A stretch of DNA of 23,291 nt from Synechococcus sp. (GCA_051439425.1 JBFRWD010000146.1:1-23291); one strand, 5' to 3'; positions 4,756 through 22,710 are shown, counted from the first letter of the stretch. Numbers and translations are program-made. Notes: generated from the sequence alone by a model not told the origin.

Positions 4756-4759
4756 TCCT

Positions 4760-5920: not shown

Positions 5921-8900
5921 ATGCTGAGCACTAAAAACGTCGCTCCAGGCGCGAAAGCCTATTACAAGGAGGACAACTACTACAGCAAGGAAGACAGCGA
6001 AGCTCAGAGCCAGTGGCAAGGCAAAGGGGCCGAAAAGCTGGGATTGACCGGAACGGTAAATGACGAAGTCTTCGGTCTGCTGCTGCACGGACGACTACCT
6101 GACAAAACCAAATTCCGTCGTCGCCCCCCAACCCATGCCGGTTACCAAGAGCGGGGAGCCCTCGACCTAACATTCAGCGCTCCCAAATCCGTCAGTTTGC
6201 TGACCAAAATCGGCGGTGATACCCAGCTGGAAAAAGCCCACTACCGAGCAGTTGCCAAGGCAATTGACTACATCGAAAAACACCATGCCATCACTCGGAT
6301 TCGACAGCGGGGCAACCAAATCAAGGTGAATACTGGGAATTTGGTGGTGGCCAAATTCAACCACGACACCAGCCGCCTGCTCGACCCGCAATTACACACC
6401 CACTGTCTGGTGTTGAACATGACTCAGACATCGGGGGGCAAGTGGTATTCGCTGAGTAACGATGCCATCCACAAGAACAAACACCTGCTTGGTGCCATCT
6501 ATCAAAACGAGCTGGCTCGCGGAGCGATGGAGCTGGGCTATCAGATCCACCGCAACGGCAACGGCACCTTCGAAATTGCTGGATTCAAACAGAAGCATCT
6601 GGACTACTTCAGCAAGCGGCGCAAGGAAATCGAGCCGCTGATCGATAAATTCAGCACCTGGCAGGAGAGACAGGATGCTTCTCTCAAAGTCAGAGAGAAG
6701 AAAGTCGAAATCGACCGGCGCGAGCTGCTGGACTACTGGGCCAGCGAAGCAGCATCTATCGGCTTGCAACTGCCTCAACCCAGCGGGCGCAGAGCCGTCG
6801 TTGTTGGTAACAGTCAACTTCAACCGGAGACTATCAATGAGCGAGCTGCAGCAAGAACTCAACATCGCCCTTCAGCCAGTGTTCGACCGGCTGACAACTA
6901 TCGAGCAACAAATGAGCTTGATGAGACAAGAGCAAGGCACCTACAGCAATCGGGTGGATTCGTTCATGGAGGAGTTGTTGATTCGCCTCAAAGCCGAGGA
7001 GAAGAACAACGACCTGGGCGAGACAATCGCGCAATTCGTGCAGGCGTTGAAAGAGAACAGCCAGCAGCAGGAAAACGTCGCTTTGAGGATGGAGGAATTC
7101 GTCGCAATGGTGAACGACGGACTGGCCGAGATGGGGTCGAGCCAACACTAGCCAGTGAGATTGCCGAACTGCTGAACAACCGCCAGCAGCAACAAAGTCT
7201 ATCGGCAGCGATCGCCCAGCTCAAGGCAGCTCAGCAGCTTCAAACCAGGGTTCATGCTCAAAGCCAGCAATTAGAGTCAGCCCTGACAGATGCCACTCAG
7301 GTGTTGAAGACGCTGCAGTTGAAAACGAATCCGTCCAAGCACTTGGCGCGAGAGACGGCAAAAGCTCTGCACCAGTACACAGTAAACAGAGCTGTAGAAA
7401 CATCTATAAGTACGGAAGTACTGAACCAACTAAAAGACGCGCTCGGCCAACAACAGGAACTGAGCAACAACCTCCAGCCCCTAGCCAACAGTCTTCAAAC
7501 CATCGAAGACAAAACAGTCGCTCGACGACTAGCCGAGGCAATCGCCAAGCGCCGCCAGCAAGAAGCACTCAAGCGAGAGGCCCAAGTCTCCGAATTGGTG
7601 GATGCTGTCAAACAGCGAGTGGAAGCCCAGGACAAGCAGTATCAACAATTCATTGGCCAGTTCGAAAAAGCCCTGCAGACAGTAACGGATCGCTTCACCG
7701 CTCGACGGGTGGCTTTGGCTGTCGCTCGCAAACGGAATCACCGCCAGATGATGCAAGAGGGGATTCAAGAAACCCTCTCTGAATCCATGCAAGGCATTCG
7801 GGCCAGTAGCGAGCGATCTGCCGACACGCTGACCACTCTCAGCCGGTTGGGGCCGAAGATTCAGCAGATCGGCAAAGTATTTGAAGACAGACGACAGGAA
7901 GACATTGAGCGCAAACGGGCGATCGCTTACGACCAACCCCACAGCAAGTTCGAGACAGTGGATGAGGCAGTAGCCGCCGGTATAGACCACGCAGCCGAGC
8001 GAGCAGTTGCTTTCAGACCGGAGCGAATCGTCAAGTTTGTATTGGAGGAATTGGGAGGCTTCGACATTGAGAGTATTGAAGCCGCCATCGAGCGCGCACC
8101 GGGACTGATTCGCTTCGGCAGGTTTGTCACCACCGACAATGCAGTCCGTCGAGAGCTGGATACGATTCGCACGGTATTGGGCCAACAGGGACAACTGACT
8201 CCCATTGCGCCGACAAACCAGCTAGTAGAGCTGCAGTTACAGGCAACGGTTAGAGACCATCAGCAAACCAGTCCTCACTGGCAATGGACGAGCGGCCAGG
8301 TGGATGCGGTCAAGCTGGCAGCAACGACTCGCGATCGGTTTGTGGCTTGGCAGGGGGTGGCCGGTGCAGGTAAGACCACGGCTCTGAAGCAAGTATCGAA
8401 GCTAGCGACTAGCTGTGGATACACGGTGAAAGCCTTCGCACCGACAGCAAAGGCCACCAAAGTGCTCTCCGACGAGTTGGGGATTCGGGGACAGACGGTG
8501 GCTCGCCTGATTCGACAGGAACCCAAGCCAAGCGCGAAACCACAACTGTGGATTGTGGATGAGGCCGGAATGCTGTCAGCAGATGCCGGACAGAAGATTG
8601 TCCAACAAGCCGTGCAAGCCAATGCTCGGGTCGTCTTTGTGGGAGATACCCGCCAACTGTCGGCGGTAGAAGCAGGGAATCCGTTTAAGTCATTGCAGCA
8701 GGCCGGAATGAGAACGGCCCATCTGACCATCTCCAGACGGCAAAAGAATCCGGGGCTCAAGTCTGCCGTGGATCTGGCTGCGCGGGGGGAGATTGAGTCT
8801 TCAGTTAAAGAGCTTGAACGGAATGGGATGACCCACTATCACAAGTACCGGGGTTCCCGTCACAAGCAAATCGTGGCTGACTTCTTAGCCCTGACTGCAG

Positions 8901-11002
8901 CAGAGCGGATGGACACCTTGGTGATTGCTGGGACCAATAAGGACAGAGAGGCAATCGCGTCAGGGATCAGAAGGGGATTGCGGGCTCGTGGGGAGCTGGG
9001 GGAACAGGTTGCTGCAACTCGATTGGGAGCCAAGAATCTCACCGATGCTCAGAAGGCATTTGTCCACAACTACGAGGTGGGAGATGTGGTCATTCCTACT
9101 CGCAAAGTATTCGGCTTGGAAACTTGGCAGCGCTATCGAGTTACGAATATCGATAACGACCGGCTCAGGGTGATGGGAGATGACGGCATCTATCGAGTGG
9201 TGAATCCATCCAGCAACTTAAGTGTCTTCTACCAGAAGTCGATGGATGTGTCGGTGGGGGATGTGATGCGTTGGCGACGGAACGACTATGGAGCCGGACG
9301 GAGGAACGGGCAGGAATTCAGCATTGAGGCCATCGAAGGGCGCACAGCCACGGTGCAATACAGAGACGGCAAGATGGAGCGCTTGAATCTGGATCGGGCT
9401 CAGCATTTTGACTACGCGAATGTAACCACTACCTACGGCTCTCAAGGCAAGACCTGCGGTCGGGTGTTGATGATGGCTGAGGATGACGGGACGTTGAACC
9501 GAGAGTCCTATTACGTGGGGATTTCTCGGGCTAAGCATGGGGGGAAGGTCTATGCCGAGCAGCGGTCTGTGTTGGTGGAGGCGGCCAGCCGCAGTCATGC
9601 GAATGAGAATCCCATCGAGCAGGTGGAGAACTGGGTTGAGATGCTGAATGGGTTGCTGGAGAAGTCAGTAGAGCGGGAACGGCAGATGCAGGCCCGCGAG
9701 TTTATTCCGGCTACCGAGACCATTAACGAGGCTGCAACAGAAGTAGCTGAGACGCCGGTAGTTGAGCAGTTCGAGAGCGATCGCCTGGATGACTCTGCGG
9801 TTCATCTGACAGACAAGCATCGCTACGAGATGGAGGAAGAAAGCGCGATCTCCCGCGATGTGGTGGAACTGAACGTGCGATCCGTTGTGGGCGAGGAAGC
9901 TAAACAAGTGTTGTTGACATCCCCTGAGTTGTTCACCAGCTCCGGTCAGTTGAAGAAGTGGGTGCAGCAACGATACGACCACATCGAGAAAGGAGGCTGG
10001 GTCTTTCAGGGGGTCGATCCGTTGAATGATGGCGAGAGGATGGATTGGGTCAGGTTCAAGCCGGACGAGCCCAAGATGAATGAAAAGGAGGATGCAGAGA
10101 CAGGAGAAATCAAGACCAAGCCGATCAAGTACGAATCCACTCCCAAGACAGCAACCAGAGCAATGTTCCCGGCTTATCCGCAGCGGTTGTGGGAGGCGAT
10201 GGCGACCAGGAACAAGCAACCGATTGAATCAACAGACAAGCATTTCTGGCAGTGGGTGGAGCGAACGAATTTGCCGATTGTGATTACTGAAGGCAGTAAG
10301 AAGGGGATGGCTTTGGCTAGTGCGGGTTACATCGCGATCTCCTTGCCTGGGGTTTGGAATGGAGCCAGGAAAGCAACAGATGATTTACCCGAGCGTTTGA
10401 TCCCCGAGCTGGAGAAGTTCGCCACTGCTGGCCGTCAGATCTATTTTGCATTTGACGCTGATACCAAACAGTCAACGGTTGAGCAGGTGAATAAGGCCAT
10501 TCACCGCACGGCTGGGTTGATGGCCAAGCAGGACTGCCATGTATTCGTCATGAGCTGGGAGGGGGAGAAAGGGATTGACGATTTGATTGCGGCGAAGGGG
10601 ACTGATGTTGTAAGAGATGCCTACCGGCAGGCTCAGCCGTTTACGGAATGGAAGCTAGCCAATGGATTCCAGACCAAACAACAAGAAGGAATCGATATCG
10701 AGCTGGTGCAGCATTGGCCCCAGGCGGCGCAAATTGCGGGCAGGAGTGCTGGCTATGTTGAGATAACACGAAGGACAGTTGCAGGTGTGGAAGGAGGCGG
10801 TTACTTGGGAGAGCATAACCGGCAGTTGCTCTATAAAGACATCGGCAGGGCTATGGAAAGGATTGCTAGGAGAATTAGCGATCCTCGCGCCCGACGCGAG
10901 TGGGACAGGGCGAGATACGAGCTCAGGTACGGTCACTTGCCACCACTCGACATGCTGAAAACGATTGGGGAGGTTTCACTGCGCCGAAGTCGGCAAAGAT
11001 AA
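5921..11002 (+). CDS. MOB_F (TrwC/TraI-type) relaxase fused to a RecD-like SF1 helicase and a C-terminal DUF3854/TOPRIM-like domain
   Basis: Tyr pairs Y14-Y15 and Y20-Y21, DLTFSAPKSVS, HDTSRLLDPQLHTH; helicase GVAGAGKT, IVDEAGM, GDTRQL, SQGKT, YVGISR; C-terminal ITEGSKK...LPGVWNG...FAFDAD...KGIDD. Confidence 0.93.
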   Translation: MLSTKNVAPGAKAYYKEDNYYSKEDSEAQSQWQGKGAEKLGLTGTVNDEVFGLLLHGRLPDKTKFRRRPPTHAGYQERGALDLTFSAPKSVSLLTKIGGDTQLEKAHYRAVAKAIDYIEKHHAITRIRQRGNQIKVNTGNLVVAKFNHDTSRLLDPQLHTHCLVLNMTQTSGGKWYSLSNDAIHKNKHLLGAIYQNELARGAMELGYQIHRNGNGTFEIAGFKQKHLDYFSKRRKEIEPLIDKFSTWQERQDASLKVREKKVEIDRRELLDYWASEAASIGLQLPQPSGRRAVVVGNSQLQPETINERAAARTQHRPSASVRPADNYRATNELDETRARHLQQSGGFVHGGVVDSPQSRGEEQRPGRDNRAIRAGVEREQPAAGKRRFEDGGIRRNGERRTGRDGVEPTLASEIAELLNNRQQQQSLSAAIAQLKAAQQLQTRVHAQSQQLESALTDATQVLKTLQLKTNPSKHLARETAKALHQYTVNRAVETSISTEVLNQLKDALGQQQELSNNLQPLANSLQTIEDKTVARRLAEAIAKRRQQEALKREAQVSELVDAVKQRVEAQDKQYQQFIGQFEKALQTVTDRFTARRVALAVARKRNHRQMMQEGIQETLSESMQGIRASSERSADTLTTLSRLGPKIQQIGKVFEDRRQEDIERKRAIAYDQPHSKFETVDEAVAAGIDHAAERAVAFRPERIVKFVLEELGGFDIESIEAAIERAPGLIRFGRFVTTDNAVRRELDTIRTVLGQQGQLTPIAPTNQLVELQLQATVRDHQQTSPHWQWTSGQVDAVKLAATTRDRFVAWQGVAGAGKTTALKQVSKLATSCGYTVKAFAPTAKATKVLSDELGIRGQTVARLIRQEPKPSAKPQLWIVDEAGMLSADAGQKIVQQAVQANARVVFVGDTRQLSAVEAGNPFKSLQQAGMRTAHLTISRRQKNPGLKSAVDLAARGEIESSVKELERNGMTHYHKYRGSRHKQIVADFLALTAAERMDTLVIAGTNKDREAIASGIRRGLRARGELGEQVAATRLGAKNLTDAQKAFVHNYEVGDVVIPTRKVFGLETWQRYRVTNIDNDRLRVMGDDGIYRVVNPSSNLSVFYQKSMDVSVGDVMRWRRNDYGAGRRNGQEFSIEAIEGRTATVQYRDGKMERLNLDRAQHFDYANVTTTYGSQGKTCGRVLMMAEDDGTLNRESYYVGISRAKHGGKVYAEQRSVLVEAASRSHANENPIEQVENWVEMLNGLLEKSVERERQMQAREFIPATETINEAATEVAETPVVEQFESDRLDDSAVHLTDKHRYEMEEESAISRDVVELNVRSVVGEEAKQVLLTSPELFTSSGQLKKWVQQRYDHIEKGGWVFQGVDPLNDGERMDWVRFKPDEPKMNEKEDAETGEIKTKPIKYESTPKTATRAMFPAYPQRLWEAMATRNKQPIESTDKHFWQWVERTNLPIVITEGSKKGMALASAGYIAISLPGVWNGARKATDDLPERLIPELEKFATAGRQIYFAFDADTKQSTVEQVNKAIHRTAGLMAKQDCHVFVMSWEGEKGIDDLIAAKGTDVVRDAYRQAQPFTEWKLANGFQTKQQEGIDIELVQHWPQAAQIAGRSAGYVEITRRTVAGVEGGGYLGEHNRQLLYKDIGRAMERIARRISDPRARREWDRARYELRYGHLPPLDMLKTIGEVSLRRSRQR
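6837..7151 (+). CDS. Overprinted 104-aa coiled-coil protein in the +1 frame inside the relaxase gene
   Basis: GGAG (6826-6829) 7 nt before ATG; helical sequence MSELQQELNIALQPVFDRLTTIEQQM..., while the relaxase frame is R/G-rich and disordered-looking over the same interval. Confidence 0.7.
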   Translation: MSELQQELNIALQPVFDRLTTIEQQMSLMRQEQGTYSNRVDSFMEELLIRLKAEEKNNDLGETIAQFVQALKENSQQQENVALRMEEFVAMVNDGLAEMGSSQH

Positions 11003-11295: not shown

Positions 11296-11402
11296 ATGTC
11301 ACTATCTGTATGGAATTAGAACTGACGAGAGTTTATCAATGCTTGGCAAAGGTCAACATGGCACGGAAGGGTTAGCCCGTAAATAGCGCTCATAAAAATC
11401 GA

Positions 11403-11415
11403 GGCGCTTCGCGCC
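11403..11415 (-). promoter_or_regulatory. DGR target hairpin downstream of VR1
   Basis: GGCGC-GAA-GCGCC 30 nt after the stop; equivalents follow VR2 and VR3 but not TR. Confidence 0.8.
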
Positions 11416-11445
11416 AAGAGTGTAAGAGGGTAAAAGAGAAAAGGG

Positions 11446-11571
11446 TTACTGAAGAGACCTCGGCTCTTCACACACCACTCGAAACCCAATGCCGTGGTCG
11501 GATCCGCGCGGATAGTAGAAGCGGTAGGCGGAACGGCAATCCCTCGGAGGGTTGGCCCAGGAACCGCCGCG
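11446..11571 (-). repeat. Variable region VR1
   Basis: 13 substitutions versus TR upstream of the divergent 3' end, all at TR adenines, plus a one-codon deletion in the AAC run. Confidence 0.95.
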
Positions 11572-12267
11572 CCAAACACGAGACTGATTTTCGTCATCGT
11601 TGCCGTCTATCCAAGCACTACCATCATTAGGAGCACCTTCGTAGCTGTCATGCCAATGGTCCAAGCACCATTCGCGAACGTTTCCATGCATGTCGCAGAG
11701 GCCGAAGGCGTTGGCAATTCCATAAAGATCGACAGGGGTCGTTTTTCTCCGACTATCGGCTATTGGACTACCGTTGTAGGAAACTGAGCTATCAAAATTT
11801 GCCACTTCAGCCGTGAGAATATCACCGAAATAAAATGGTGTTTTAGTGCCAGCTCGGCAAGCATACTCCCACTCCGCCTCGCTGGGCAATCGGTAAGTTC
11901 GTTTCGTGTGCTGAGAAAGGCGATCGCAAAATTCCACCGCTTCGAACCAAGAAATGCTTTCTACTGGATGCTTCTCACCTTTAAATACAGCGGGATCTGG
12001 CTCGAGAGAACGATTGACTTGCTCGATCTGCTCTGCAACAAAGCGCCATTGGTCTTGAGTAATGGGATAACGGCCCATAAAGAAATTTGGGACAGTGACA
12101 GGATGTTGGGGGCCTTCGTCGTTATATCGTTCGGGCTCGCTGTCTGGGGAGCCCATCTCGAAGCTACCTCCTGACACCCAAATCATGTCTAGCTCGATGT
12201 CCGTTCCCAGCGCTTCGGGGAAATATCGTGCGGTTTCTTGCCGCCTTTGTAGTATCAGCTCTGCCAT
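11446..12267 (-). CDS. DGR target 1: stand-alone FGE-sulfatase/C-type-lectin-fold protein
   Basis: F.MGSP, EGPQH.V, YRLPSEAEWEYACRAG, NAFGLCDMHGNVREWC, RGGSW...GFRVV; VR at the C-terminus. Confidence 0.95.
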   Translation of the reverse strand: MAELILQRRQETARYFPEALGTDIELDMIWVSGGSFEMGSPDSEPERYNDEGPQHPVTVPNFFMGRYPITQDQWRFVAEQIEQVNRSLEPDPAVFKGEKHPVESISWFEAVEFCDRLSQHTKRTYRLPSEAEWEYACRAGTKTPFYFGDILTAEVANFDSSVSYNGSPIADSRRKTTPVDLYGIANAFGLCDMHGNVREWCLDHWHDSYEGAPNDGSAWIDGNDDENQSRVWRGGSWANPPRDCRSAYRFYYPRGSDHGIGFRVVCEEPRSLQ

Positions 12268-12282
12268 CGATTACCATCTCCA

Positions 12283-12428
12283 TCGAGAGGGTGAACCAGA
12301 CAACTGTTCGGCTAACCTACCAAGCTATCTGGCTCGTGGGGATTTTCGGACGCCCGAAGACATCGCAGGAGCAGGTCTGGACTCTTCCAGTCACACCCGA
12401 CAGATTCCCACCTGCCAGTTCCGGTCAC
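12283..12428 (-). ncRNA. Structured DGR spacer RNA 3' of TR
   Basis: Stems GCAGGU/ACCUGC, CUGGA-AGAG-UCCAG, GAUGUC-UUCG-GGCGUC (12349-12364) and 13-bp GAGCCAGAUAGCU/AGUUGUCUGGUUC (12293-12335), with G-U pairs that work only on the minus strand. Confidence 0.75.
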
Positions 12429-12554
12429 GAAGAGTACTCGGCTCTTCACACACCACTCGAAACCCAATGTTGTTGTTGGATTCGCGCGGATTGTTGTTGT
12501 TGCGGTAGGCGGAACGGCAATTCCTTGGATTGTTGGCCCAGGAACCGCCGCGTT
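12429..12554 (-). repeat. DGR template repeat (TR) with IMH*-like 3' end
   Basis: Intergenic AAC/AAT-rich copy: CGCGGCGGTTCCTGGGCCAACAATCCAAGGAATTGCCGTTCCGCCTACCGCAACAACAACAATCCGCGCGAATCCAACAACAACATTGGGTTTCGAGTGGTGTGTGAAGAGCCGAG; 3' end AGTACTCTTCGT versus AGG(G/T)CTCTTCAG in the VRs. Confidence 0.97.
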
Positions 12555-12594
12555 CGCTGGCCTGCCCCATTGGTACGGTAGCGCGAACGATTGA

Positions 12595-13695
12595 TTAACG
12601 CCGCTCGAAGTTATTAGAAGAAAGAGACTGCGGTTCTGGTGGTGGAATGAACGTGAGTTGACTGAAAATCTGCTGTCTAAGCCGGTAGGTATTTCCATGC
12701 TGAAGATGAGCTTCCCAACTTTGCAATCGCTGAATGAGATCTGGTAAGCCGATCTCTCCCTGGTTGAAACTCTGCTGTAGACGCTGAAAGCGGCGTCGAG
12801 CTCTCCGAAGGTTATCGTTTCTGACACGGATATAATCCGGTAAGATGCGAAATCCAACGAAGTTGGCTCCAATATGGGTTTCGAATAGTTGGCTTTTGAC
12901 GGGATGCAATCGCAGTCTTATTGAGGCCAAGTATTCGCCGACCGCCTTACGCGCCGCTGCCAGAAAGCCGCGATCGTCAGAAAACAAAGCAAAATCATCG
13001 ACATAGCGAAGGTAATGTTTAGCTTTCAAGGTCTCTTTGACGAAGTGGTCGAAGCCGTTGAGATAGACGTTGGCAAAAAACTGGCTGGTCTGATTACCAA
13101 TAGGCAAGCCTTTCGGTCGTTGGATGGGGGTGAGTAGATCGTCTCCGGGGAAGTAGTCGGCACTGCGTTGCGGACGATCGCCACTATCGATGATGCTGTC
13201 GATTAGCCAAAGGGTTGGCGAACATTTAATTTTGCGACGCAGCATGGTTTTGAGCAGGGGGCGATCGATGCTGGGAAAATATTTGTGGATGTCGCATAAG
13301 AGCACGTAGCGGTTGGTTCAGGCGAACTGGGTGAAGCGACGTAAGGCACGGTGGGTGCCGTACCCAGTGCGATTGGCGTAGGTGTCGTGGATGAAGGTGC
13401 GAGCGAGCGGCGGAATGATGATGTTGCAAAGGGCGTGATGGACGACGCGATCGCGGTAGGGGGCGGCCGAAATCAGCCTGGGTTTGGGGTCGCTGATGCG
13501 GAAAGTTGTGTATGGGCCGGGTCGGTAGGTTTGGGTTTGCAGTTCGGTTTGCAGTCGCAGCAGTTCGATTTCGAGGTGGTGGTTGAAGTCGAGAACATTA
13601 GGACGGTAGCGCTTACCTTTTTGCGCTTGTTGGGCTGCTCGGTATAGGTTTTCAAAGCTAGTGATATGTGGCCATAGGTTGCCGAAGCGTTTCAT
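12595..13695 (-). pseudogene. DGR reverse transcriptase, interrupted by one in-frame TGA at 13318-13320
   Basis: The two track ORFs are one frame: [23 protein letters not shown]. Motifs [34 protein letters not shown]; 366 codons if the stop were a sense codon. Confidence 0.92.
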
Positions 13696-13717
13696 GGACC
13701 CATCTTGCGCAGTAGCT

Positions 13718-13942
13718 TCAAAGTAGCTCTAGGAATGCGTCCACAGTCAGATCCACATCCCGCAGGATTTTACGCAGTAAGCCCTTTCCGATGTTTTTGC
13801 CCGTGTGAACGGGAACAGTGGCGATGCGCCCATCTTCGTGTTTTAGACGAACATGGCTGCCTTTTTGGCGAACAACGACGAAACCGATCTTTTCTAAAGC
13901 TCGAATCAGTTGCTTGCCTGTCACCGTCGGCAATGGAGGCAT
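13718..13942 (-). CDS. hicA: HicA family toxin (mRNA interferase)
   Basis: [10 protein letters not shown]...RQKGSHVRL...TVPVH...[11 protein letters not shown]. Confidence 0.92.
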
Positions 13943-13959
13943 CGTTAGTTCGCTACTCT

Positions 13960-14175
13960 TCAGATAACGACTTTTTGGATACCGACAAACTCAGGAATAG
14001 TATCCGAGCTTTCGTCTTCGAGACAGAGGGCAATGACTTCGCGAATGTTGTCGAGCAACTCATCAATGGTTGCCCCTTGGCTGTAGCAGGCTTTGAGTTG
14101 CGGTACTTCGCCGACGTAGTAGCCGTCTTCGTCCCGCTCTATCAGTACGTAGAACTCTCGAATTGGTTCTGTCAC
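13960..14175 (-). CDS. hicB: Short HicB family antitoxin without a DNA-binding domain
   Basis: VLIERDEDGYYVGEVPQLKACYSQGATIDELLDNIREVIALCLE; hicB-hicA order. Confidence 0.92.
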   Translation of the reverse strand: MTEPIREFYVLIERDEDGYYVGEVPQLKACYSQGATIDELLDNIREVIALCLEDESSDTIPEFVGIQKVVI

Positions 14176-14211
14176 ATCACGCTCTGGGGTATGAAGCTTG
14201 TGCTCAATCTA

Positions 14212-14553
14212 TCATTTTCGATTCTGTTGCTGGCCGATCCAACCTCCCAGGGCAATACCAACCTCGTTCATTTGCTTGGCAGCGTATTCATATCGTTCGA
14301 GAGATATCAGTTGAAAGTCCAGAAGCAATCGAGTTTGGTAGCGCAAGACCTCTAGCTCGGTGTTGAGGGTGCGTAGTTGGTGAAGTTTGTCGTTGCTGTA
14401 GTGGGCGCGAATCAGCCCTTCTAACAGGGTGTAGAGGCCGGAAACGATGCGATCGCCGAGGACGTATTTATGCGATCGGGGTAGTCGATTGAGGATGGGA
14501 ACGTACCATTTAATAAAGTCGTAGGTCTTTTGAACAATGGGGAGTTCGCTCTA
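14212..14553 (-). pseudogene. avd: DGR accessory variability determinant (Avd); TAG occupies the expected start codon; absent from the ORF track
   Basis: Manual translation: (TAG)SELPIVQKTYDFIKWYVPILNRLPRSHKYVLGDRIVSGLYTLLEGLIRAHYSNDKLHQLRTLNTELEVLRYQTRLLLDFQLISLERYEYAAKQMNEVGIALGGWIGQQQNRK*, an Avd four-helix pattern ending in G..LGGW. Confidence 0.9.
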
Positions 14554-14609
14554 GGTTGGCTCGGCACACCTCCCGATTTTAGCTGCCTGAAATGCTTGGA
14601 AAAATTCGA

Positions 14610-14622
14610 GGCGCTGCGCGCC
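14610..14622 (-). promoter_or_regulatory. DGR target hairpin downstream of VR2
   Basis: GGCGC-GCA-GCGCC 30 nt after the stop. Confidence 0.8.
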
Positions 14623-14652
14623 AAGAGGGTAAGAGGGTAAAAGAGCTAAGGG

Positions 14653-14781
14653 TTACTGAAGAGCCCTCGGCTCTTCACACACCACACGAAACCCAATGCT
14701 GTTGAAGGAAGCGCGCGGATTGAGGTCGTCGCGGTAGGCGGAACGGCAATTCCTTGGACTGCTGGCCCAGGAACCGCCGCG
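14653..14781 (-). repeat. Variable region VR2
   Basis: 12 substitutions versus TR, all at TR adenines. Confidence 0.95.
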
Positions 14782-16023
14782 CCTGATACGAGGATTGTTT
14801 TTCTTTGCTCCCTTATCAATCCAAGCACTCCCGTCTTCGGGCGCGCCTTCATAGCTGTTGTGCCAGTGGTCGAGGCACCATTCCGATACATTCCCGTGCA
14901 TGTCGCAGAGGCCGAAAGCGTTGGCACAGTCGAATAAATCTACAGGAGTAGTTTCAGCTCGATACTCACCCTTTGGACCCCCAGCATAGGTTCCACTTTT
15001 ATCGTCAGAACCATCATAGTTAGCAAAATCTGTAGAAATAGTTTCACCAAAGTTGAAAGGCGCTCTGGTGCCAGCCCGACAGGTATATTCCCATTCCGCT
15101 TCAGAGGGCAATCGGTAGGTGCGCTCTGTATAGCGGCTGAGGCGATCGCAAAATTCAACAGCCTCGAACCAGGACACTTGCTCCACTGGACGCTTCTCTC
15201 CTGGAAAATTCGAGGGATTTGCTTTCAGATCGATATCGACTTTGGGGAGCTCAGCCACAAATTTCCACTGTTCTTGCGTAACAGGGTATTTGCCTATGAA
15301 AAATTCCGGCACCATCACATCATGCTGTGGCCCCTCGTAGGAGAGTCGTTCTAGTTCGCCTTCAGGCGAGCCCATTGAGTAGTGTCCGCCTAAAACTTGC
15401 ATCATCTCAAGAACCAGCTCTTCCCCTAATCGCTCGCGGAAGAGTCTCACTTGCTCGTGTCGGTTGACTGCTAAGATACGCCCGAGATCGCTCTCATAAA
15501 CTCGTATCTGTTTGCTAACTTTCCCTGAGAAACTTACTGTTGCAGGACTAGCACCTACCTGAAGCGTGCCTCGTATAGTCTCTAAAGGAGCCTGTTCGTC
15601 TGAGAGCATCGCCTCTAGAGCACTGATGATTAATTGCTCGGCTTTCGATTCGGTCGCATCTGACAGATCGATGACTGGGAATTTATCTAATCCTGGGGAG
15701 AACTCTACGTTGTCAACTCTGATGAAAACGAAAAGTGCTTTGGCCCACTCAACGTTCCGATTAACCAAAAAGGACAACCAATCCGAACCTACAGATTTTT
15801 TAGAAATAATCGAGATCGAACAGTCACTTTCGGCGATCGCCTGACCTATTTCATCAACAAAACTCTGACCGGGGCTGTTGCCCAAAATCGCTGCGGTAAC
15901 TATGTATCCACTGTCTTCCAGCAGCCAGGTAATCCAGTCCGCCCAGGGGCGATCGGCCTCTACATAACTGACAAAGAAGTGTTTAACAACGACTGACTGC
16001 TCGATGGAATCGGACATCTTCAA
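14653..16023 (-). CDS. DGR target 2: TIR-like domain + FGE/CLec domain
   Basis: N-terminal FFVSY..ADRPWADWITWLLEDSGY...PGQSFV (TIR_2-like); C-terminal FGE motifs; start may be ATG at 16017. Confidence 0.92.
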   Translation of the reverse strand: MKMSDSIEQSVVVKHFFVSYVEADRPWADWITWLLEDSGYIVTAAILGNSPGQSFVDEIGQAIAESDCSISIISKKSVGSDWLSFLVNRNVEWAKALFVFIRVDNVEFSPGLDKFPVIDLSDATESKAEQLIISALEAMLSDEQAPLETIRGTLQVGASPATVSFSGKVSKQIRVYESDLGRILAVNRHEQVRLFRERLGEELVLEMMQVLGGHYSMGSPEGELERLSYEGPQHDVMVPEFFIGKYPVTQEQWKFVAELPKVDIDLKANPSNFPGEKRPVEQVSWFEAVEFCDRLSRYTERTYRLPSEAEWEYTCRAGTRAPFNFGETISTDFANYDGSDDKSGTYAGGPKGEYRAETTPVDLFDCANAFGLCDMHGNVSEWCLDHWHNSYEGAPEDGSAWIDKGAKKNNPRIRRGGSWASSPRNCRSAYRDDLNPRASFNSIGFRVVCEEPRALQ

Positions 16024-16052
16024 CCCAATCAGTTACAAGGTAGAAAAATCGA

Positions 16053-16065
16053 GGCGCTGCGCGCC
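16053..16065 (-). promoter_or_regulatory. DGR target hairpin downstream of VR3
   Basis: GGCGC-GCA-GCGCC 22 nt after the stop. Confidence 0.8.
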
Positions 16066-16087
16066 AAGAGGGTAAAAGAGCAAAGGG

Positions 16088-16216
16088 TTACTGAAGAGCC
16101 CTCGGCTCTTCACCCACCACTCGAAACCCAATGTTGCGGTTGGAAGCGCGCGGATTGAAGTTGAGGCGGAAGGCGGAACGGCAATACCCCGGATCGTAGG
16201 CCCAGGAACCGCCGCG
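16088..16216 (-). repeat. Variable region VR3
   Basis: 15 substitutions versus TR: 14 at adenines and one T>G (TGT>GGT). Confidence 0.95.
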
Positions 16217-18796
16217 CCTGATACGACCCATCTTTTCGTTATCGTTGTCATCTATCCAAGCGCTCCCGTCATCCGGCGCATTGTCGTAATTGCCATGCCA
16301 CTGGTCTAAGCACCACTCGAAAACGTTGCCGTGCATATCGCAAAGACCAAAAGCGTTGGCTATTTCGTAGCGATCGACAGAGGTAGTTTGATCCAGACTT
16401 TCGGCTGTCGGACTGCCGTTGTAGGAGACAGAGCTGTAGTAGTTCGCCACATCAGCAGTGAGAACGTCTCCGAAGTTAAACGGTGTTCTCGTTCCGGCCC
16501 GACAGGCATATTCCCATTCCGCCTCGCTGGGCAATCGGTAGGTTCGCTTTGTGTGTCGAGAGAGGCGATCGCAGAATTCGACAGCATCAAACCAAGAGAC
16601 TCGTTCGACTGGATGGCGTGCTCCTTTGAATCTCGCAGGCGATGGTTCAAGCGGGCGATTCACCTGCTCGCACCGCTCGGCAACAAACCGCCATTGCTTC
16701 TGCGTGACAGGATATCGCCCCATTAAGAAACCCTCTAGCCTAACTTCGTGTTGAGGATCTTCACTGTTACGGCGTTCTGGTTCGTTCGGCGGTGAACCCA
16801 TCAGAAACTCTCCAGCCGGTATCGCAACCATTTCCAAGCTAAAGTCGCTATCCAACACTTCCTCAAACTTCCAAGCCGCACCAGACTCTTTAAGTACTCT
16901 CCATCCTCCTTCCGCAGAAGAATCGCGTTCTAACTTGGCAATCTCAAAAGTAAACTCCTCAAGGCCCTCTTGAGGATCGCTTCTCCCGCTCTCAGCCTCA
17001 TTCTCGAACACGAGAATGACAACCTGCACCGTCTCTTCTTCCATAGGAGGAAAAGCAATCCTTACCAGCTCGACAAATTGCCCCGTCTCGAATGTCAACT
17101 CTCTAAGAGGGGGAAACCCGTCTCTTCCCACTAAGGCTTTACGATCTCGGACACTAACTGGCTCTTCACCTCTTAAAACCCGCTCTCTTTCATCCGCCCT
17201 AGCCACCCATGCTCTACCCAACTCCGCCTCCTCACCCCCCAGCAGTTGCAGCACGGAACCACAAACCTTAGCAAAATACAAATCCCCATCCGCGATCTGC
17301 GCCTGCAACCGCCCCCTGTCATCAGGAATCAAAGCACCGAAATCTCGAAGAGAACCATACTGCTGCTCAATAAAACTTCCCATCCCATTCATTACATTCA
17401 CCGATTGCAATGGTGGGCTAAGCTTTAACAACCGCTTTCGATAGTCCCCCTTGAAATCGTAAAAACTCTCTGCCACACCCTTCCCCTCTGGCCCCAGGCA
17501 CGACTTCTGCACCATTCCACTAAAAAATACCTCTGCCAAATGCCAGTAACGACTTTTTGACAAAAACGTCTGTTGCGCCAAACGCATCACCGGGGGGATC
17601 AAGGGCAACGCTGCCAAAATCTTCGCCAGCTCCTGCGCCTCATTGCTGGCATACGTCCAGAAATATGCCAAAGCATCCCGCTCATTTTCTACATCCTGAC
17701 CGCTATTTATGTCCTCTGACTCTTCCTCATCATCTTCTTCCTCTTGCTCAAACAACACCCCTTGAATCGCATTTCCTCCATATGCACAAACGTGCTGAGC
17801 CCAAGTCCCCATATGCTTGTCCGACAGATTGAATACCGGAAACCGGAACATCCGGTTGTCCTCTACTGGCAAGCGACCCTCTACCTGCAACTTGCGGTTG
17901 GCACAGGCTGCCAGTGGAGCTTTCAATGGTCGCAAAATTGCCGCCGCCAAGGCCGTGCTACTCCACAACTGACGCGGAAAAATATGTGCTAAATGGACTG
18001 GATGAACCTTGCCCAATGCACCTAACCACTCAAAAGCTTTTTGAGAATGCCAAGCCCGTCCCAGAGTATCGGTCAAGACTAAAAAAATGCGCTCGTGACC
18101 GGGGGCATGCAAGCTATGCACCTCACGCTCGATCGCATCTCCCCCCGATTTCAAGACCGCTCCCGCCGCATCTCCCGTATGGAATTCCCACACCCGCACA
18201 TCCCGAAACAATCCTTGCCAGCGAAACAAATCCGCCGCATCTGTGGACAAATCACCCCAAAATGCCATCGAAGGAGAACGATCGACTAACAAATGCAACT
18301 CCAACCACCGTTCCCTCGGACCCTGCCAAACGGGAGAGAGCAACCCATTTGCCTCTGCTGTTGCGATCGCTGTTGCCTCCACATTCAATTCGGTCCTTAA
18401 GGTTCCGGCGATGCGGCGAGCCAAAGGGGCGATCGCCTGACCAATCTCGCGTGCATCCGGAAAAGGAAAGGGATCTGGGACGCGAATGAGGGATGCAGGC
18501 TGATTTCTCTCTAGCTTCTTTCGGTCGGCCTCGCTGCGATCGGATTGACCTTTTGGATAGAGGGGAATGCTAGTTTCTTGTCGTGACGGTGCCGAGATGG
18601 GAGGCAATTCATCCTGGGCTCGATTTCGGCTCCCCAAAGTATTGCCGGGATAAGGAGGCCGCTCGTTCGCTTCCATTTGACCGTCGTCGATCGGATTGAG
18701 CCGACTATCCCAAATGTGGTGCAAGTGTGCCGCACACCACATCAAGTCTGCGACTTCAATCTCATCATTCCACCAAGGTGCATCTTCCAAAGCCAT
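16088..18796 (-). CDS. DGR target 3: vWA (SAV_2336-like N-terminal) domain + FGE/CLec domain
   Basis: EVADLMW, MIDAS-like LLVDRSPSMAFW (DxSxS), LVLTD, HLAEVFFSG; C-terminal FGE motifs; directly downstream of MoxR. Confidence 0.9.
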   Translation of the reverse strand: MALEDAPWWNDEIEVADLMWCAAHLHHIWDSRLNPIDDGQMEANERPPYPGNTLGSRNRAQDELPPISAPSRQETSIPLYPKGQSDRSEADRKKLERNQPASLIRVPDPFPFPDAREIGQAIAPLARRIAGTLRTELNVEATAIATAEANGLLSPVWQGPRERWLELHLLVDRSPSMAFWGDLSTDAADLFRWQGLFRDVRVWEFHTGDAAGAVLKSGGDAIEREVHSLHAPGHERIFLVLTDTLGRAWHSQKAFEWLGALGKVHPVHLAHIFPRQLWSSTALAAAILRPLKAPLAACANRKLQVEGRLPVEDNRMFRFPVFNLSDKHMGTWAQHVCAYGGNAIQGVLFEQEEEDDEEESEDINSGQDVENERDALAYFWTYASNEAQELAKILAALPLIPPVMRLAQQTFLSKSRYWHLAEVFFSGMVQKSCLGPEGKGVAESFYDFKGDYRKRLLKLSPPLQSVNVMNGMGSFIEQQYGSLRDFGALIPDDRGRLQAQIADGDLYFAKVCGSVLQLLGGEEAELGRAWVARADERERVLRGEEPVSVRDRKALVGRDGFPPLRELTFETGQFVELVRIAFPPMEEETVQVVILVFENEAESGRSDPQEGLEEFTFEIAKLERDSSAEGGWRVLKESGAAWKFEEVLDSDFSLEMVAIPAGEFLMGSPPNEPERRNSEDPQHEVRLEGFLMGRYPVTQKQWRFVAERCEQVNRPLEPSPARFKGARHPVERVSWFDAVEFCDRLSRHTKRTYRLPSEAEWEYACRAGTRTPFNFGDVLTADVANYYSSVSYNGSPTAESLDQTTSVDRYEIANAFGLCDMHGNVFEWCLDQWHGNYDNAPDDGSAWIDDNDNEKMGRIRRGGSWAYDPGYCRSAFRLNFNPRASNRNIGFRVVGEEPRALQ

Positions 18797-18810: not shown

Positions 18811-19887
18811 TCACAAAGGCTTGTAAATGGCATTGAGCAGTTCTCTTTGATTTTCCTCGGTCAGATCTTCTCCCTGCAGCATCAAGTAGACAGCATTCAA
18901 TAGTTGATCGGTAGCGAGCTTTTTATCATTTTCAGCAATGCGATCTAAGAACGTATGAATTAAGCCCTTCGCCTTTGTCTCGTTAGCCACAAGATCGGCA
19001 TTCTTGAAACGCTGTTGCAGAATCTCGTAGAACCCCTCTTCTGTATTGGGCTGCTCCAGTTTCAGACTCAAACAGCGGCGCATGAAGGCAGGCGGAAATT
19101 CCCTTGCTTCATTGCTCGTCATAAATACCAGCGGAAACTCTTCGCAAGGAACAATGCCATCGTGAATCGGAATTTTCGTTGTTGTGCGATCTTGGCGGTC
19201 TCGATAGGGAAGTACGTCGTACTTTGGGCCTCCCAATCGCGATAACTCGGGAATTTCAAAATAGCCTTCTTCAAACAGGTGCAATAAGTCATTAGGTAAG
19301 TCGATGTCGCTTTTGTCGATTTCATCGATTAGAAGCACTGCCGGTCTTTGGCGTCGAGATCGATAAAATGCCATCCCCACGGGACCGAGACGCAGATAGT
19401 CACCAATATCGGGGGGTGTCTTCTCTTCCCCTTGAGATGTTCCTTGTTTTTGAAGTGCATCTTGCTGCAATCGACCAATGGCGTCATAGGCGTAAAGGCC
19501 ATCCTTTAGCACCATTCGTGAAGTAATCGACCAGCGATAAGGGCCAGGTAGACCTAATTCTTTGGCGACAGCATAGGCCAGCGTAGTCTTTCCAGAACCA
19601 GGAGTTCCGACTATGAGAAGGGGACGACGCAGGCAGATGGCTGCATTGACCAGAGCAATCGCCTTATTTGGGACAACGAAGCCTAGCCCACGGCTATCGC
19701 TGCGATCGATCTCGATATCCGATTGGCTCAACGGGTAGTCTACCCGGCCAACGTTTCGCCAGGGGGGTGGGGGTGGAATCAAACTACGCCGTTCTGCTTG
19801 AGCGTGGGGATCGGGTAACTCGCTCAGGGTAAGACCGCGATAGATGCGTTGGTCTTCAAGGTCGAAGAAGGATGAGGAATCGCTCAT
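18811..19887 (-). CDS. MoxR-family AAA+ ATPase
   Basis: VNAAICLRRPLLIVGTPGSGKT (Walker A), YAYDAIGRL, LLIDEIDKSDIDLPNDLL (Walker B), TSNEAREFPPAFMRRC. Confidence 0.93.
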   Translation of the reverse strand: MSDSSSFFDLEDQRIYRGLTLSELPDPHAQAERRSLIPPPPPWRNVGRVDYPLSQSDIEIDRSDSRGLGFVVPNKAIALVNAAICLRRPLLIVGTPGSGKTTLAYAVAKELGLPGPYRWSITSRMVLKDGLYAYDAIGRLQQDALQKQGTSQGEEKTPPDIGDYLRLGPVGMAFYRSRRQRPAVLLIDEIDKSDIDLPNDLLHLFEEGYFEIPELSRLGGPKYDVLPYRDRQDRTTTKIPIHDGIVPCEEFPLVFMTSNEAREFPPAFMRRCLSLKLEQPNTEEGFYEILQQRFKNADLVANETKAKGLIHTFLDRIAENDKKLATDQLLNAVYLMLQGEDLTEENQRELLNAIYKPL

Positions 19888-21831
19888 TTAAGTCACCTCG
19901 GATTGCAGCATGAATTGGGATCGCTCTGTAGGTTTTGGAAAGGTATCGTCGCGAAAGTGGGTTAACTGCAAGGGTTGCTTTCGCTCTCGGTAACGGCTGC
20001 GAATATTGGGTAATAGTTTGTACCACTCCTGCCATTGGTCGGTCGATAGTTCGTCTGCTACGACCGTGCTCGCCGGTTGTTCCCGTTCCCGGCTCCAAAG
20101 TGCAAAAATATAGTTCTTTTCAATCTCCCGCAACATGCGTTCGCTACAGTCGTCCCAGATATAGAGGGCAAAGGACGATGATGCTTCTTCAGATAAGGTT
20201 TGGCAGTTGACAACTATGGGGGGTAGCTCTGTTCTTGTAGGAGACCAAGCTATTTTTTTTATCTTCTTGATTTTCCTCTTGATCGATCTAAATTCCGTAA
20301 CAAAGTAGCGTTCATAGGAGTTGATAAATATAGCGTACTCCTCGCCAAGACCAACTTGTTCTCGGCCTCGCTGCAAATGTATTAATTCAAATGACTGATT
20401 ATATAGTTCAAGTGGTATAAATAGTTCCAATACTGGGAGTAAATCTTCCGAGGCTAATATTTTATAATGAATAGATTCGATTAATTGTGGTAAGATTAAC
20501 GCCAGCTTGCTTTGAAATGATTGAGGATTAGAGTCGGACAACTTGGCAATATTTCTACAGTAGGATAAAGGTAGATCTTCATTCTCCATCCAGAGACCAA
20601 TGTGAAGAGCGTATTCTCCGGTAAATCGGCCAGAATTATTTTCATCAGACTCTGGCTCTAATTCAATTTGTATTCTAAATTCTACTTGCTTATTATTTTC
20701 AATGCAGTCTGAAATTAATTTTTCTGCTACTCTAGAGCAACAATCTAAGTTTACATTCGGCTTATAAAGAGGAATATTTTTTTGCCAGCTTCTAATATCT
20801 CTTAATATCTTCTTCGAGACTTTCAAATCCCCAATATGCTCAACATATTGACAGAACCACTCTGAGAAAATGAGTAATTCACAGTTACCATCAATTGCCG
20901 CTCTACGAGCATAGCTTTGCAGTTTTTGGAAAAAATCATTCCCGCTATTTGTTATTAGCCTTCTTTCTTGCTTTTGATAAGCGATCAAGGTATTGATCGC
21001 AGCCATAACTAATATGTCATCATTGATTGAGTGAAGGATTTCATTCAATTGATTGACAAAGGTAAGGTAACAGGACTCCCAGTCCATGAGCGACCTGAGA
21101 TTATTTCTTGGAAAGAAATCGATCAAGGTAGGATTTGAGCCTTGAGGACAACTATATTGAGCACTTTGATCTTCACCTAAATGGCTATCGATAAGATTAC
21201 AAAGCTTATTTGGATGAAGGTAACTACTATCTAGATGGGATACAAGTTCGTCAACAACTATTTGGAAGGCCTCAACAAATCTTCCTACTTTAGCCGTATT
21301 TTTAAATTGACTAGAGGCGATGATATGAAGATTAAAAGCATTGTCAACTTGTTGTTTTGGTGCTATGCCTTCGGCATAGGCTTTTAGCATATCACTACTA
21401 CCACTTCCAGAATAGCAAGTGTCGATTATCATCAATATATGCTTGACTTTTGAATCTTTTTGCAAAAAGGTGTAGATTAACTTCTCCGTTTCCAGTCCTG
21501 TTATCTCTATTCGATCTCTATCACTGTTCTGTAAAAGTAGGCAATGGCCAGGTCTAGCGTTTTCCCCATGACCAGAATAGTAGAATGCCACTACATCTTT
21601 CTCTGTTCGCTCTGACGACGCCAGCCAATTCGCAATCTCAACAATGAATTCTTTGTCAGGATTATTGCTTATACTTTTTAGGACTTGCGTATATCCAAAA
21701 ACCTCTGTAAAAATCCTAACGATTCCATTGATTTCTTGTTCAACACCCAAACGATTGTCTGATGGATCGGAATAGGTGGAAGTACCACAAGCAATCAGGT
21801 AATATCTTGGGATATTGCTTTCTTCAGTCAT
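19888..21831 (-). CDS. Caspase-like (C14) protease fused to a probable vWA-MoxR-associated (VMAP) C-terminal region
   Basis: His-Cys dyad motifs FYYSGHG and IIDTCYSG; C-terminal LELFIPLEL...LGEEY...NSYER, FALW; stop abuts the MoxR start (TAAATG). Confidence 0.82.
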   Translation of the reverse strand: MTEESNIPRYYLIACGTSTYSDPSDNRLGVEQEINGIVRIFTEVFGYTQVLKSISNNPDKEFIVEIANWLASSERTEKDVVAFYYSGHGENARPGHCLLLQNSDRDRIEITGLETEKLIYTFLQKDSKVKHILMIIDTCYSGSGSSDMLKAYAEGIAPKQQVDNAFNLHIIASSQFKNTAKVGRFVEAFQIVVDELVSHLDSSYLHPNKLCNLIDSHLGEDQSAQYSCPQGSNPTLIDFFPRNNLRSLMDWESCYLTFVNQLNEILHSINDDILVMAAINTLIAYQKQERRLITNSGNDFFQKLQSYARRAAIDGNCELLIFSEWFCQYVEHIGDLKVSKKILRDIRSWQKNIPLYKPNVNLDCCSRVAEKLISDCIENNKQVEFRIQIELEPESDENNSGRFTGEYALHIGLWMENEDLPLSYCRNIAKLSDSNPQSFQSKLALILPQLIESIHYKILASEDLLPVLELFIPLELYNQSFELIHLQRGREQVGLGEEYAIFINSYERYFVTEFRSIKRKIKKIKKIAWSPTRTELPPIVVNCQTLSEEASSSFALYIWDDCSERMLREIEKNYIFALWSREREQPASTVVADELSTDQWQEWYKLLPNIRSRYRERKQPLQLTHFRDDTFPKPTERSQFMLQSEVT

Positions 21832-21834
21832 AAC

Positions 21835-22710
21835 TTATTGCAATCCTAATGCGATCGCCTCTCCACATTCTTTCGTGGTTAGATACCGCGTAGCTAGATG
21901 TGCATCAGTGATATTAAAACTTTTACCAATATTTGAGACCAATCGATCTGTAATATCTCCACCGAATAATGGATTTAATGATTTTACCGCCGCGACATAA
22001 TCTTCCTCATCGGCAAGGTTTATCCAATGCGATAGTCCTGCGGGCCAATAACCCTCACCATCAATAGGAGAAGGAGTCAGGCGATCGAAGATTAAATTAG
22101 GAATTCCCAGAGGAGAACCTAATGTAATAAAGACTTCAATCGGCCAGTCAGGGTGTTCGCACAGAGCTTCGTAACAAACAATAGAGCCTAGCGAATGTCC
22201 AATGAGTATTCTAGTATCATCCTGTATGCAGCTAGCCAACTTATCTCGAGCTATTGCTGCTAAATTGTGATCGGTCAAATAAGCATGCACTTGTTTGACA
22301 AAATGAATTAGAACCTGTTCTGAAACGATATTTAGATACTTGACACTACACAACTTTGCAATCACATAAGAGAGAGCCTTCCCGGCACCCTTATCAGTTG
22401 CGTTGAGATCCTCGCACGACTTCACCGCCTCCATACGTTCTAGCTCCGAAAACCATGCACGAAATAGGTCTTCTTCCCAGCCTGAGTTAACATCCCCTGC
22501 ATCGTATGCTGGAAAATCGTGTCGGGCCTTGGATTGAACTCGCTCTCGGAATAAGTCACCAAAGAAAGCACAGGTTAAATCAGCTTCTGAATCAAGTTTC
22601 CGATTGACTTTTGCCAGACCATCCTTTAGATTGGGCAACCACTTTAATTTAATCGTGTTTCCTCCTTCATATTCCTTGTTGATACCGTGAACAGCGACGA
22701 TCTTTGACAT
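21835..22710 (-). CDS. Alpha/beta hydrolase
   Basis: VAVHGI, GHSLG nucleophile elbow, FITLGSPLG, WINLADEEDYVA, AH..RYL; 3 nt from the caspase gene start. Confidence 0.87.
   Translation of the reverse strand: MSKIVAVHGINKEYEGGNTIKLKWLPNLKDGLAKVNRKLDSEADLTCAFFGDLFRERVQSKARHDFPAYDAGDVNSGWEEDLFRAWFSELERMEAVKSCEDLNATDKGAGKALSYVIAKLCSVKYLNIVSEQVLIHFVKQVHAYLTDHNLAAIARDKLASCIQDDTRILIGHSLGSIVCYEALCEHPDWPIEVFITLGSPLGIPNLIFDRLTPSPIDGEGYWPAGLSHWINLADEEDYVAAVKSLNPLFGGDITDRLVSNIGKSFNITDAHLATRYLTTKECGEAIALGLQ

Follow-up and report, generated by a model that had tools for sequence, protein, structure and literature searches.

The window analysed here, a whole 23.3-kb contig (23,291 nucleotides; GCA_051439425.1 JBFRWD010000146.1:1-23291) of a Synechococcus sp. 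genome, carries a locus which, judged from its sequence, is a diversity-generating retroelement (DGR); we regard this identity as secure. One template repeat (TR) is accompanied by three variable repeats (VRs) in three target genes, and by genes for a reverse transcriptase (RT) and for Avd. The diversifying engine of this DGR has probably been switched off, or nearly so, in the recent past: the RT gene is interrupted by a stop codon and avd has lost its start codon. An earlier analysis of the same DNA (the sequence-only reading) had recognised the DGR, and this identification is borne out by adenine-specific mismatches, by a DGR-type RT and Avd beside the TR, and by the location of the VRs at the C-termini of FGE-sulfatase/C-type lectin (CLec) proteins.

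A repeat finder detected a four-copy family of about 124 nt on the minus strand, and MAFFT recovered the same copies. The TR is the sole copy outside the C-terminus of a long open reading frame (ORF). TR and VR cores were delimited from CGCGGCGG to GAAGAGCCGAG, which gives a TR core of 116 nt.

12423-12552, minus strand: TR, core 12552-12437; homology to the VRs extends to 12423 through an IMH*-like end (IMH, initiation of mutagenic homing)
11571-11459, minus strand: VR1, in target 1
14781-14666, minus strand: VR2, in target 2
16216-16101, minus strand: VR3, in target 3

In a computed alignment, 13, 12 and 15 mismatches to the TR were counted in VR1, VR2 and VR3, and 13/13, 12/12 and 14/15 of them, respectively, fell on TR adenines (39/40 pooled), reproducing the counts obtained by hand in the sequence-only reading. 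VR2 and VR3 aligned without gaps. VR1 is 3 nt shorter than the TR through an in-frame 3-nt deletion in an AAC run; the gap has ten equivalent placements within this run, each with 13 mismatches, all at adenines. Loss of a codon from a run of four AAC-type codons fits slippage. TR/VR length differences in multiples of three were also seen in the pairs of three listed relatives (L012, +3; L042, -6; L068, +3). These relatives come from a scan of species-representative genomes, which confirmed 208 RT relatives; counts here and below use the best 80 of the 208.

The single non-adenine TR/VR difference overall is a T-to-G change in VR3, at TR position 103; many such differences would have contradicted the earlier reading, and only this 1 of 40 was found. 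Through this change VR3 has Gly, close to the IMH end, where the TR and the other two VRs have a conserved Cys. A 423-nt Logan contig over VR3 has one difference from the window, somewhere in 16107-16300. Hypergeometric p values for the adenine bias, computed for two of the VRs, were 2.1e-8 (VR2) and 8.3e-9 (VR3).

The TR core has 31 adenines among its 116 bases, and 22 of the 31 positions are changed in at least one VR. As previously stated, 27 adenines precede the invariant GAAGAGCCGAG end, corresponding to 4^27 = 1.8e16 DNA variants; the earlier peptide readings of the TR and the three VRs also agree with the program translations. Adenines occur in 16 TR codons, 11 of which are AAY. The protein-level repertoire that follows is about 1.4e14 variants, and none of the 16 codons can turn into a stop. 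At their 3' ends, TR and VRs are identical as far as GAGCCGAG, after which the VRs continue with GG or GT and the TR with TA; the two kinds of repeat part ways after CTCTTC, in what would be the IMH versus IMH* region (sequence comparison). The search for remote targets that had been proposed was run with the TR on its own genome and returned the four known copies only; after these, the best match was 19 nt long, with an E value of 0.31.

The three targets all end in the same type of domain, preceded by different regions in two of them.

11446-12267, minus strand: target 1, 273 aa, FGE-sulfatase/CLec only (Pfam FGE-sulfatase, E 1.6e-54)
14653-16023, minus strand: target 2, 456 aa, TIR_2 (Pfam, E 1.6e-18) and FGE-sulfatase/CLec (E 2.9e-49)
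16088-18796, minus strand: target 3, 902 aa, SAV_2336-N-terminal-type (vWA-class) region and FGE-sulfatase/CLec (Pfam, E 5e-55)

All three ORFs are intact, and in each of them the Pfam FGE-sulfatase match stops no more than 8 residues short of the C-terminus. Before the VRs, the FGE domains share 64-71% pairwise DNA identity, and their third codon positions are identical at 85/205, 99/206 and 87/205 sites (41-48%). Inside the VRs, non-adenine positions equal the TR at 84/84, 85/85 and 84/85 sites (253/254 in all), and non-adenine third codon positions at 33/33, 34/34 and 34/34 (101/101). Because complete agreement at these third positions meets only 41-48% upstream, the comparison demonstrates that TR copies entered all three target genes after the paralogues had diverged. 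Purifying selection is ruled out as the cause, since the synonymous sites are themselves homogenised. The same counts bear on an origin of the TR/VR likeness by ordinary duplication or gene conversion among lectin paralogues, held together by strong purifying selection and with no retrohoming. Such an origin could draw on the lectin-fold C-terminal scaffold, which is conserved family-wide. However, besides the homogenised synonymous sites, the TR lies outside every target gene, directly after the RT gene; the differences are adenine-specific, with p of about 1e-8 per VR; and the same layout, with an adenine-biased TR close behind the RT gene, was found by script in 59/80 relatives' loci, the rest being mostly short contigs. 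This explanation is effectively refuted.

The sequence-only reading had also held that the genes are diverged outside the VRs and that retrohoming was recent. In a relative sense this is correct (41-48% upstream versus 253/254 within the VRs). Recent does not mean ongoing, however, because the engine is damaged by the RT stop codon, the loss of the Avd start and a hicBA insertion. The relevant genes are the following.

12595-13695, minus strand: RT gene (Pfam RVT_1, E 4.1e-16), with an in-frame TGA at 13320-13318, codon 126
13718-13942, minus strand: hicA (Pfam HicA_toxin, 80.8 bits, cut-off 27)
13960-14208 (stop to stop), minus strand: hicB-like antitoxin gene (Pfam HicB_lk_antitox, 32.9 bits, cut-off 27), likely GTG start at 14175
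14212-14553, minus strand: avd, frame 14550-14212 (NCBIfam NF033474 DivGenRetAVD, 140.2 bits, cut-off 80; Pfam bAvd, E 3.2e-23)

The RT translation shows IGxxxSQ-like and YVDD motifs. At the column of codon 126, where the window has TGA, Arg is present in 79/80 relatives and His in 1/80. The TGA is at most one base change away from an Arg codon and is shared at this position by 0/80 relatives. Stops elsewhere in the RT alignments were seen in 2/80 relatives (L070, L078), and a TAG lies within the match of G001:C56 (L097); RT disruption may not be rare in the clade.

In avd, codon 14553-14551 is TAG and the frame opens directly behind it. This position is the start codon in 52/69 full-length relatives (44 ATG, 5 GTG, 3 TTG), and the remaining 17/69 start 1-6 codons upstream of it. 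As the closest relatives start with TTG or GTG, the TAG would be one base change from TTG. No in-frame ATG, GTG or TTG occurs near the N-terminus of the avd frame; the first canonical in-frame start lies far downstream, and for this reason no avd ORF of at least 80 aa was listed.

The hicA and hicB genes are separated by 17 nt and lie on the same strand as each other, avd and the RT gene. The stretch between avd and the RT gene is 516 nt long here; in 76 relatives its median length is 8 nt and its greatest 309 nt, and HicA or HicB matches are missing from all 80 relatives' loci. The 96%-complete genome, assembled in 182 contigs, contains no second RT or Avd. None of this damage figured in the sequence-only reading, which had overlooked the RT TGA, the loss of the Avd start and the hicBA pair. 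At columns at least 95% conserved, the RT departs from its relatives 6 times (median 2, rank 4 of 79) and Avd twice (median 0, rank 9 of 70).

Lesions in a metagenome-assembled genome might be artefacts or minority alleles, due to consensus calling or strain mixing, the real element being intact and active. The genome is a 182-contig bin and the depth at the locus is only about 11-16x, as such an account would have it. Against this, a contig from a second assembler (Logan, run X1; 2235 nt, 12443-14677; about 14x) spans both lesions with 0 differences, and no alternative letter appears at either lesion in the rows shown, with the proviso that sampling effects remain and that run X1 may be the same sample. 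Two other Logan contigs of run X1 also show 0 differences, over 14656-16112 (VR2) and 11462-12466 (VR1), at 11-16x over the locus; runs X2 and X3 gave fragments of relatives only. Run X1 is possibly the source sample, so that the match excludes assembler error and not sampling. We consider it very improbable that the lesions are artefacts.

The RNA elements flanking the TR were located as follows.

12295-12435, minus strand: RNA domain 3' of the TR (57-sequence alignment)
12435-12429 with 12381-12387, minus strand: P1, formed by ACUCUUC at the TR 3' end and by GAAGAGU, some 45 nt further downstream
12418-12397, minus strand: Avd-binding-type stem-loop, 9-bp stem and GGGA tetraloop
12365-12347, minus strand: hairpin, followed by an A-rich run
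12333-12295, minus strand: long terminal hairpin closing the RNA domain
12561-12568, minus strand: 5' arm of a TR-bracketing duplex, just upstream of the TR; partner 12375-12368
12368-12375, minus strand: 3' arm of the same 8-bp duplex; partner 12568-12561

For the RNA domain, RNAalifold predicted 39 pairs, 32 of them with compensatory changes. Paired cells reached 94.9%, against 32-44% with partners slid, and the covariation score was 0.494, against at most 0.119 in controls; 0/500 shuffles reached any observed measure. In the window, 38/39 pairs are standard. A conserved single-stranded stretch follows the 9-bp stem with the GGGA loop. The bracketing duplex, aligned in 58 sequences, had 8/9 tested pairs supported, 6 with compensatory changes, and was 89.7% paired, versus 45-59% when slid. 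These analyses establish that the predicted RNA cis-elements are intact in the window. No Rfam family reached its gathering score over the window, and only two chance-level hits (E up to 10) fell around the TR. According to passages of bioRxiv 10.1101/2023.10.23.563531, RNA elements are reported in BPP-1 and predicted in 207/278 Avd-bearing DGRs, and comprise a template:primer duplex, an Avd-binding stem-loop, and a "stop" duplex with a stem-loop and adenosines; in Cyanobacteriota the Avd-binding stem-loop has 9 bp and a GNRA loop. The elements of the window match this Cyanobacteriota set, with a 9-bp GNRA stem-loop and a duplex, stem-loop and adenosines.

We favour silencing because both genes for complementary DNA (cDNA) synthesis are hit at a critical codon and the genome holds no substitute. 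Little time would have passed since then, because the cis-elements are untouched and non-adenine identity is near-perfect. For cyanobacteria, it has been proposed that diversification components are lost once an optimal variant is fixed (in the part of PMC7517822 drawn on here). By analogy with the family, a transcript spanning the TR and its flanking RNA elements would have been copied into cDNA by RT-Avd, the cDNA receiving random bases opposite TR adenines. The mutated cDNA would then have replaced the homologous C-terminal segment of each target, rewriting 16 codons (11 AAY) on the ligand-binding face of a predicted C-type-lectin fold. The three sensors would now be frozen in their current variants, on a relaxase-bearing, plasmid-like contig.

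Several observations weigh against this interpretation. The VRs are as fresh as those of relatives with an intact RT (1 non-adenine mismatch in 254), which implies either that shutdown was very recent or that some activity remains. The deviations of RT and Avd are within the range of the relatives and therefore give no clear sign of long decay. Read-through of the UGA, re-initiation at GTG or a non-canonical Avd start may occur. Minor intact alleles or VR variants would not show in the Logan contigs, which perhaps come from the source sample, and the VR3 contig does differ once from the window. Finally, the cyanobacterial origin of the contig is putative, following its bin assignment.

The DGR might be active but throttled, with TGA read-through or re-initiation and a non-canonical Avd start providing scarce RT-Avd and rare diversification. 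An in-frame GTG lies four codons past the RT stop and an in-frame ATT at Avd codon 5; the 253/254 non-adenine identity, the wholly intact RNA cis-elements and the three intact target ORFs would also suit residual activity. On the other hand, the window contains no tRNA gene and the genome no selenocysteine tRNA (tRNA-Sec) above the cut-off; the RT stop position is common to 0/80 relatives, and the stop would divide the RT between conserved finger motifs. Moreover, the sole Shine-Dalgarno-like sequence, GGGAGG, precedes the Avd ATT by about 29 nt, and a single clean contig path runs over VR1 and VR2, although this last evidence is weak as contigs hide rare variants. Throttled activity, the main rival to silencing, is unlikely in our judgement, while retaining a real share of plausibility. 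A selenocysteine or suppressor reading of the TGA was rejected: the window lacks tRNA genes, and sub-threshold tRNA-Sec hits were also obtained in all 14 control genomes.

The lesions could also have been selected as a standby state, in which a plasmid-borne DGR is kept near-silent and a HicAB addiction module in its operon prevents its loss. Rare read-through, or one reversion, would then let a few cells within a clonal population diversify their sensors in bursts. A second, independent knock-out of Avd by drift would be unlikely, because one non-adenine change in 254 implies little elapsed time; by a rough estimate, drift alone would yield it with a chance of a few per cent, with a very wide error. 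This rough clock hints at selection for shut-down over neutral decay. We nevertheless hold the standby state itself to be improbable, and recent silencing remains our preferred interpretation.

The targets lie in a tightly packed minus-strand array in the order caspase/VMAP-like gene, AAA+ ATPase gene, target 3, target 2, avd, hicB, hicA, RT gene, TR and target 1. A promoter scan found no sigma-70-like site upstream of avd, and 1 site in the region versus 3.9 expected. In target 3, residues 13-481 match NCBIfam NF041121 SAV_2336_NTERM (339.5 bits, cut-off 200), and, at E up to 5, no Pfam family was found in its first 653 residues. Its translation shows a DxSxS-like motif, presumably a MIDAS motif. 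The genes at the head of the array are listed below.

18811-19887, minus strand: AAA+ ATPase gene, immediately upstream of target 3 (Pfam AAA, E 4.8e-9; AAA_5, E 1.9e-6); the matches are generic, and the protein is MoxR-like by position
19888-21831, minus strand: caspase-domain protein gene (Peptidase_C14, 40.2 bits, cut-off 21.4)

The caspase protein scored 20.6 bits with VMAP-C and 17 bits with VMAP-M14, both below the cut-off of 27. At the operon head, a 291-aa protein (21835-22710) shows a weak, below-cut-off likeness to alpha/beta-hydrolases (Abhydrolase_6, E 0.0017) and may be a further effector of the conflict system.

The regions just past the VRs resemble one another closely.

11394-11450, minus strand: VR1 3' flank, a pyrimidine-rich tract, a 5-bp GC hairpin (11415-11403) and a T-run; terminator-like
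14601-14657, minus strand: VR2 3' flank, same layout, hairpin 14622-14610; terminator-like
16044-16092, minus strand: VR3 3' flank, same layout minus one tract unit, hairpin 16065-16053; terminator-like

These flanks of 50-57 nt, which include the 41-nt repeat family D7, are 90-100% identical, far above the coding regions. On the sense strand, the tract units are CCCTTT / ACCCTCTT-like repeats, and the hairpin loop is GNA. A pyrimidine-rich tract was observed downstream of nearly every VR in the RT clade, in most cases with a GC hairpin and a T-run behind it, and TR flanks are without it. Among the relatives, the median of the best 40-nt pyrimidine fraction was 0.85 in 93 VR flanks versus 0.525 in 58 TR flanks; values of at least 0.85 were reached in 58/93 VR flanks versus 0/58 TR flanks, and a perfect GC hairpin with a T-run was present in 45/93 versus 0/58. 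The VR flanks of the window, at 0.725-0.75, fall under the relatives' median; we take their tract to be about 30 nt, i.e. shorter than the 40-nt measuring window. In the full texts searched, no paper that links DGRs with a pyrimidine-rich tract was found. The tract is a candidate homing signal, a candidate part of a terminator, or both. A hairpin at the VR end itself (7-9 bp, straddling the homology end in the window) was dropped as a general element: only 9/94 relatives' pairs have a VR end that outdoes the TR end in folding, so that it is not a family feature.

The rest of the contig, of GC content 0.50, bears on the vehicle of the DGR.

5921-11002: relaxase-helicase fusion gene, 1693 aa (TrwC relaxase, AAA_30/TraI-type helicase and C-terminal DUF3854)
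3676-4821: ParM-like gene
2530-3576: DUF932 gene

Because of these three genes the contig looks plasmid-like, conjugative or mobilisable, which suggests that the DGR resides on an element of this kind. The contig shows no terminal overlap that would indicate circularity. The genome encodes the photosystem II proteins CP47 and CP43. In the first 935 nt of the contig (1-935), tandem 123-nt repeats in 4-6 copies, 74-87% identical, encode WD40 blades of a protein truncated by the contig's 5' end.

Altogether, the locus provides a clean natural example of one template with three differently built putative conflict-system sensors: one in a vWA/MoxR/caspase system, one in a TIR protein and one in a lectin-only protein. 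Its history is unusually readable, with every synonymous non-adenine site homogenised and one codon lost in the AAC run. It may capture a DGR just as it is shutting down, with intact cis-elements and no more than point lesions in RT and Avd. If so, it would be the intermediate predicted by the idea, put forward for cyanobacteria in the portion of PMC7517822 used here, that components are discarded after a good variant is found. Should VRs in the population still vary, the locus would instead reveal a DGR that tolerates, or uses, an RT stop codon.

The best 80 of the 208 RT relatives are 58-70% identical to the window RT and belong nearly all to filamentous cyanobacteria. A search of 5.8 billion proteins with the RT gave 7715 hits with E values no higher than 1e-50, the best at 72% identity. 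Among the 59 loci with a TR, one VR was found in 29, two in 25 and three in 5 (L009, L022, L024, L029, L066); of the relatives' VRs, 68 precede avd-RT and 26 follow the TR. Close kin are patchy: such an RT occurs in 5/40 related genomes, none above 67% identity. As for closer copies, exact-pattern scans of metagenome contigs gave 0 matches, and megablast against plasmids gave only a 65-nt FGE match.

By gene order and target type, the locus belongs, as an ordinary member, to the described large cyanobacterial DGR clade, with avd-RT-TR and FGE-sulfatase/C-type-lectin targets; we infer its placement in clade 5E from best hits. Within the cited extracts, cyanobacterial DGR RTs form a clade of their own, often with several targets, and occur on plasmids in Anabaena sp. 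90 and Fischerella NIES-4106; the CLec domains that they diversify are joined to kinase, caspase, TIR and other domains (PMC7517822), and such targets are proposed to be sensors of VMAP ternary conflict systems (PMC10907252). As far as clade 5E is described in the sections consulted (Dore et al. 2024, PMC10907252; Vallota-Eastman et al. 2020, PMC7517822), the window agrees with it in having an RT 58-72% identical to thousands of cyanobacterial DGR RTs, the avd-RT-TR order, and several C-terminal CLec/FGE targets per TR. It differs in the hicB-hicA pair between avd and RT, the RT nonsense codon and the lost Avd start, and in that the nearest match of its RT is only 72% identical in 5.8 billion proteins.

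With the DGR of Bordetella phage BPP-1 (selected passages of Guo et al. 2011, PMC3240598, and Handa et al., 10.1101/2023.10.23.563531), the window shares adenine-specific TR-to-VR transfer, Avd and RT, a TR 3' end paired downstream, an Avd-binding stem-loop, a TR-bracketing duplex and a GC hairpin past the VR. The order in BPP-1 is, however, target-avd-TR-RT, with a single phage tail-fibre target. Phage DGRs require a GC hairpin whose loop is GRNA and which lies 4-34 bp past the VR (Guo et al. 2011, PMC3240598, in part). In BPP-1 the stem of this DNA hairpin is 8 bp long and its GRNA loop 4 nt, within 4-34 bp of the VR, whereas the hairpin in the window, with a 5-bp stem and a GNA loop of 3 nt, stands 27-35 nt past the homology end, after the pyrimidine-rich tract.

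The target context recalls the DGR loci of Thiohalocapsa PB-PSB1, which are tied to VMAP ternary conflict systems (PMC10907252): both have a diversified CLec on a vWA-class protein, next to which stand a MoxR-like ATPase and a VMAP-like protein with a peptidase domain (both assignments putative in the window), together with extra short CLec-only and TIR-bearing targets. Host phylum and RT clade differ, and the VMAP-C match in the window is below the cut-off (20.6 versus 27 bits). Finally, remnant targets of Nostoc sp. PCC 7120 (all3226; PMC7517822, partial account) resemble the window in that TR-VR-type homology outlasts functional machinery. There the RT is wholly absent, whereas the window keeps RT, Avd, TR and RNA elements, with single-base lesions. 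By this analogy, the state of the window would be an earlier stage on the path taken by Nostoc sp. PCC 7120.

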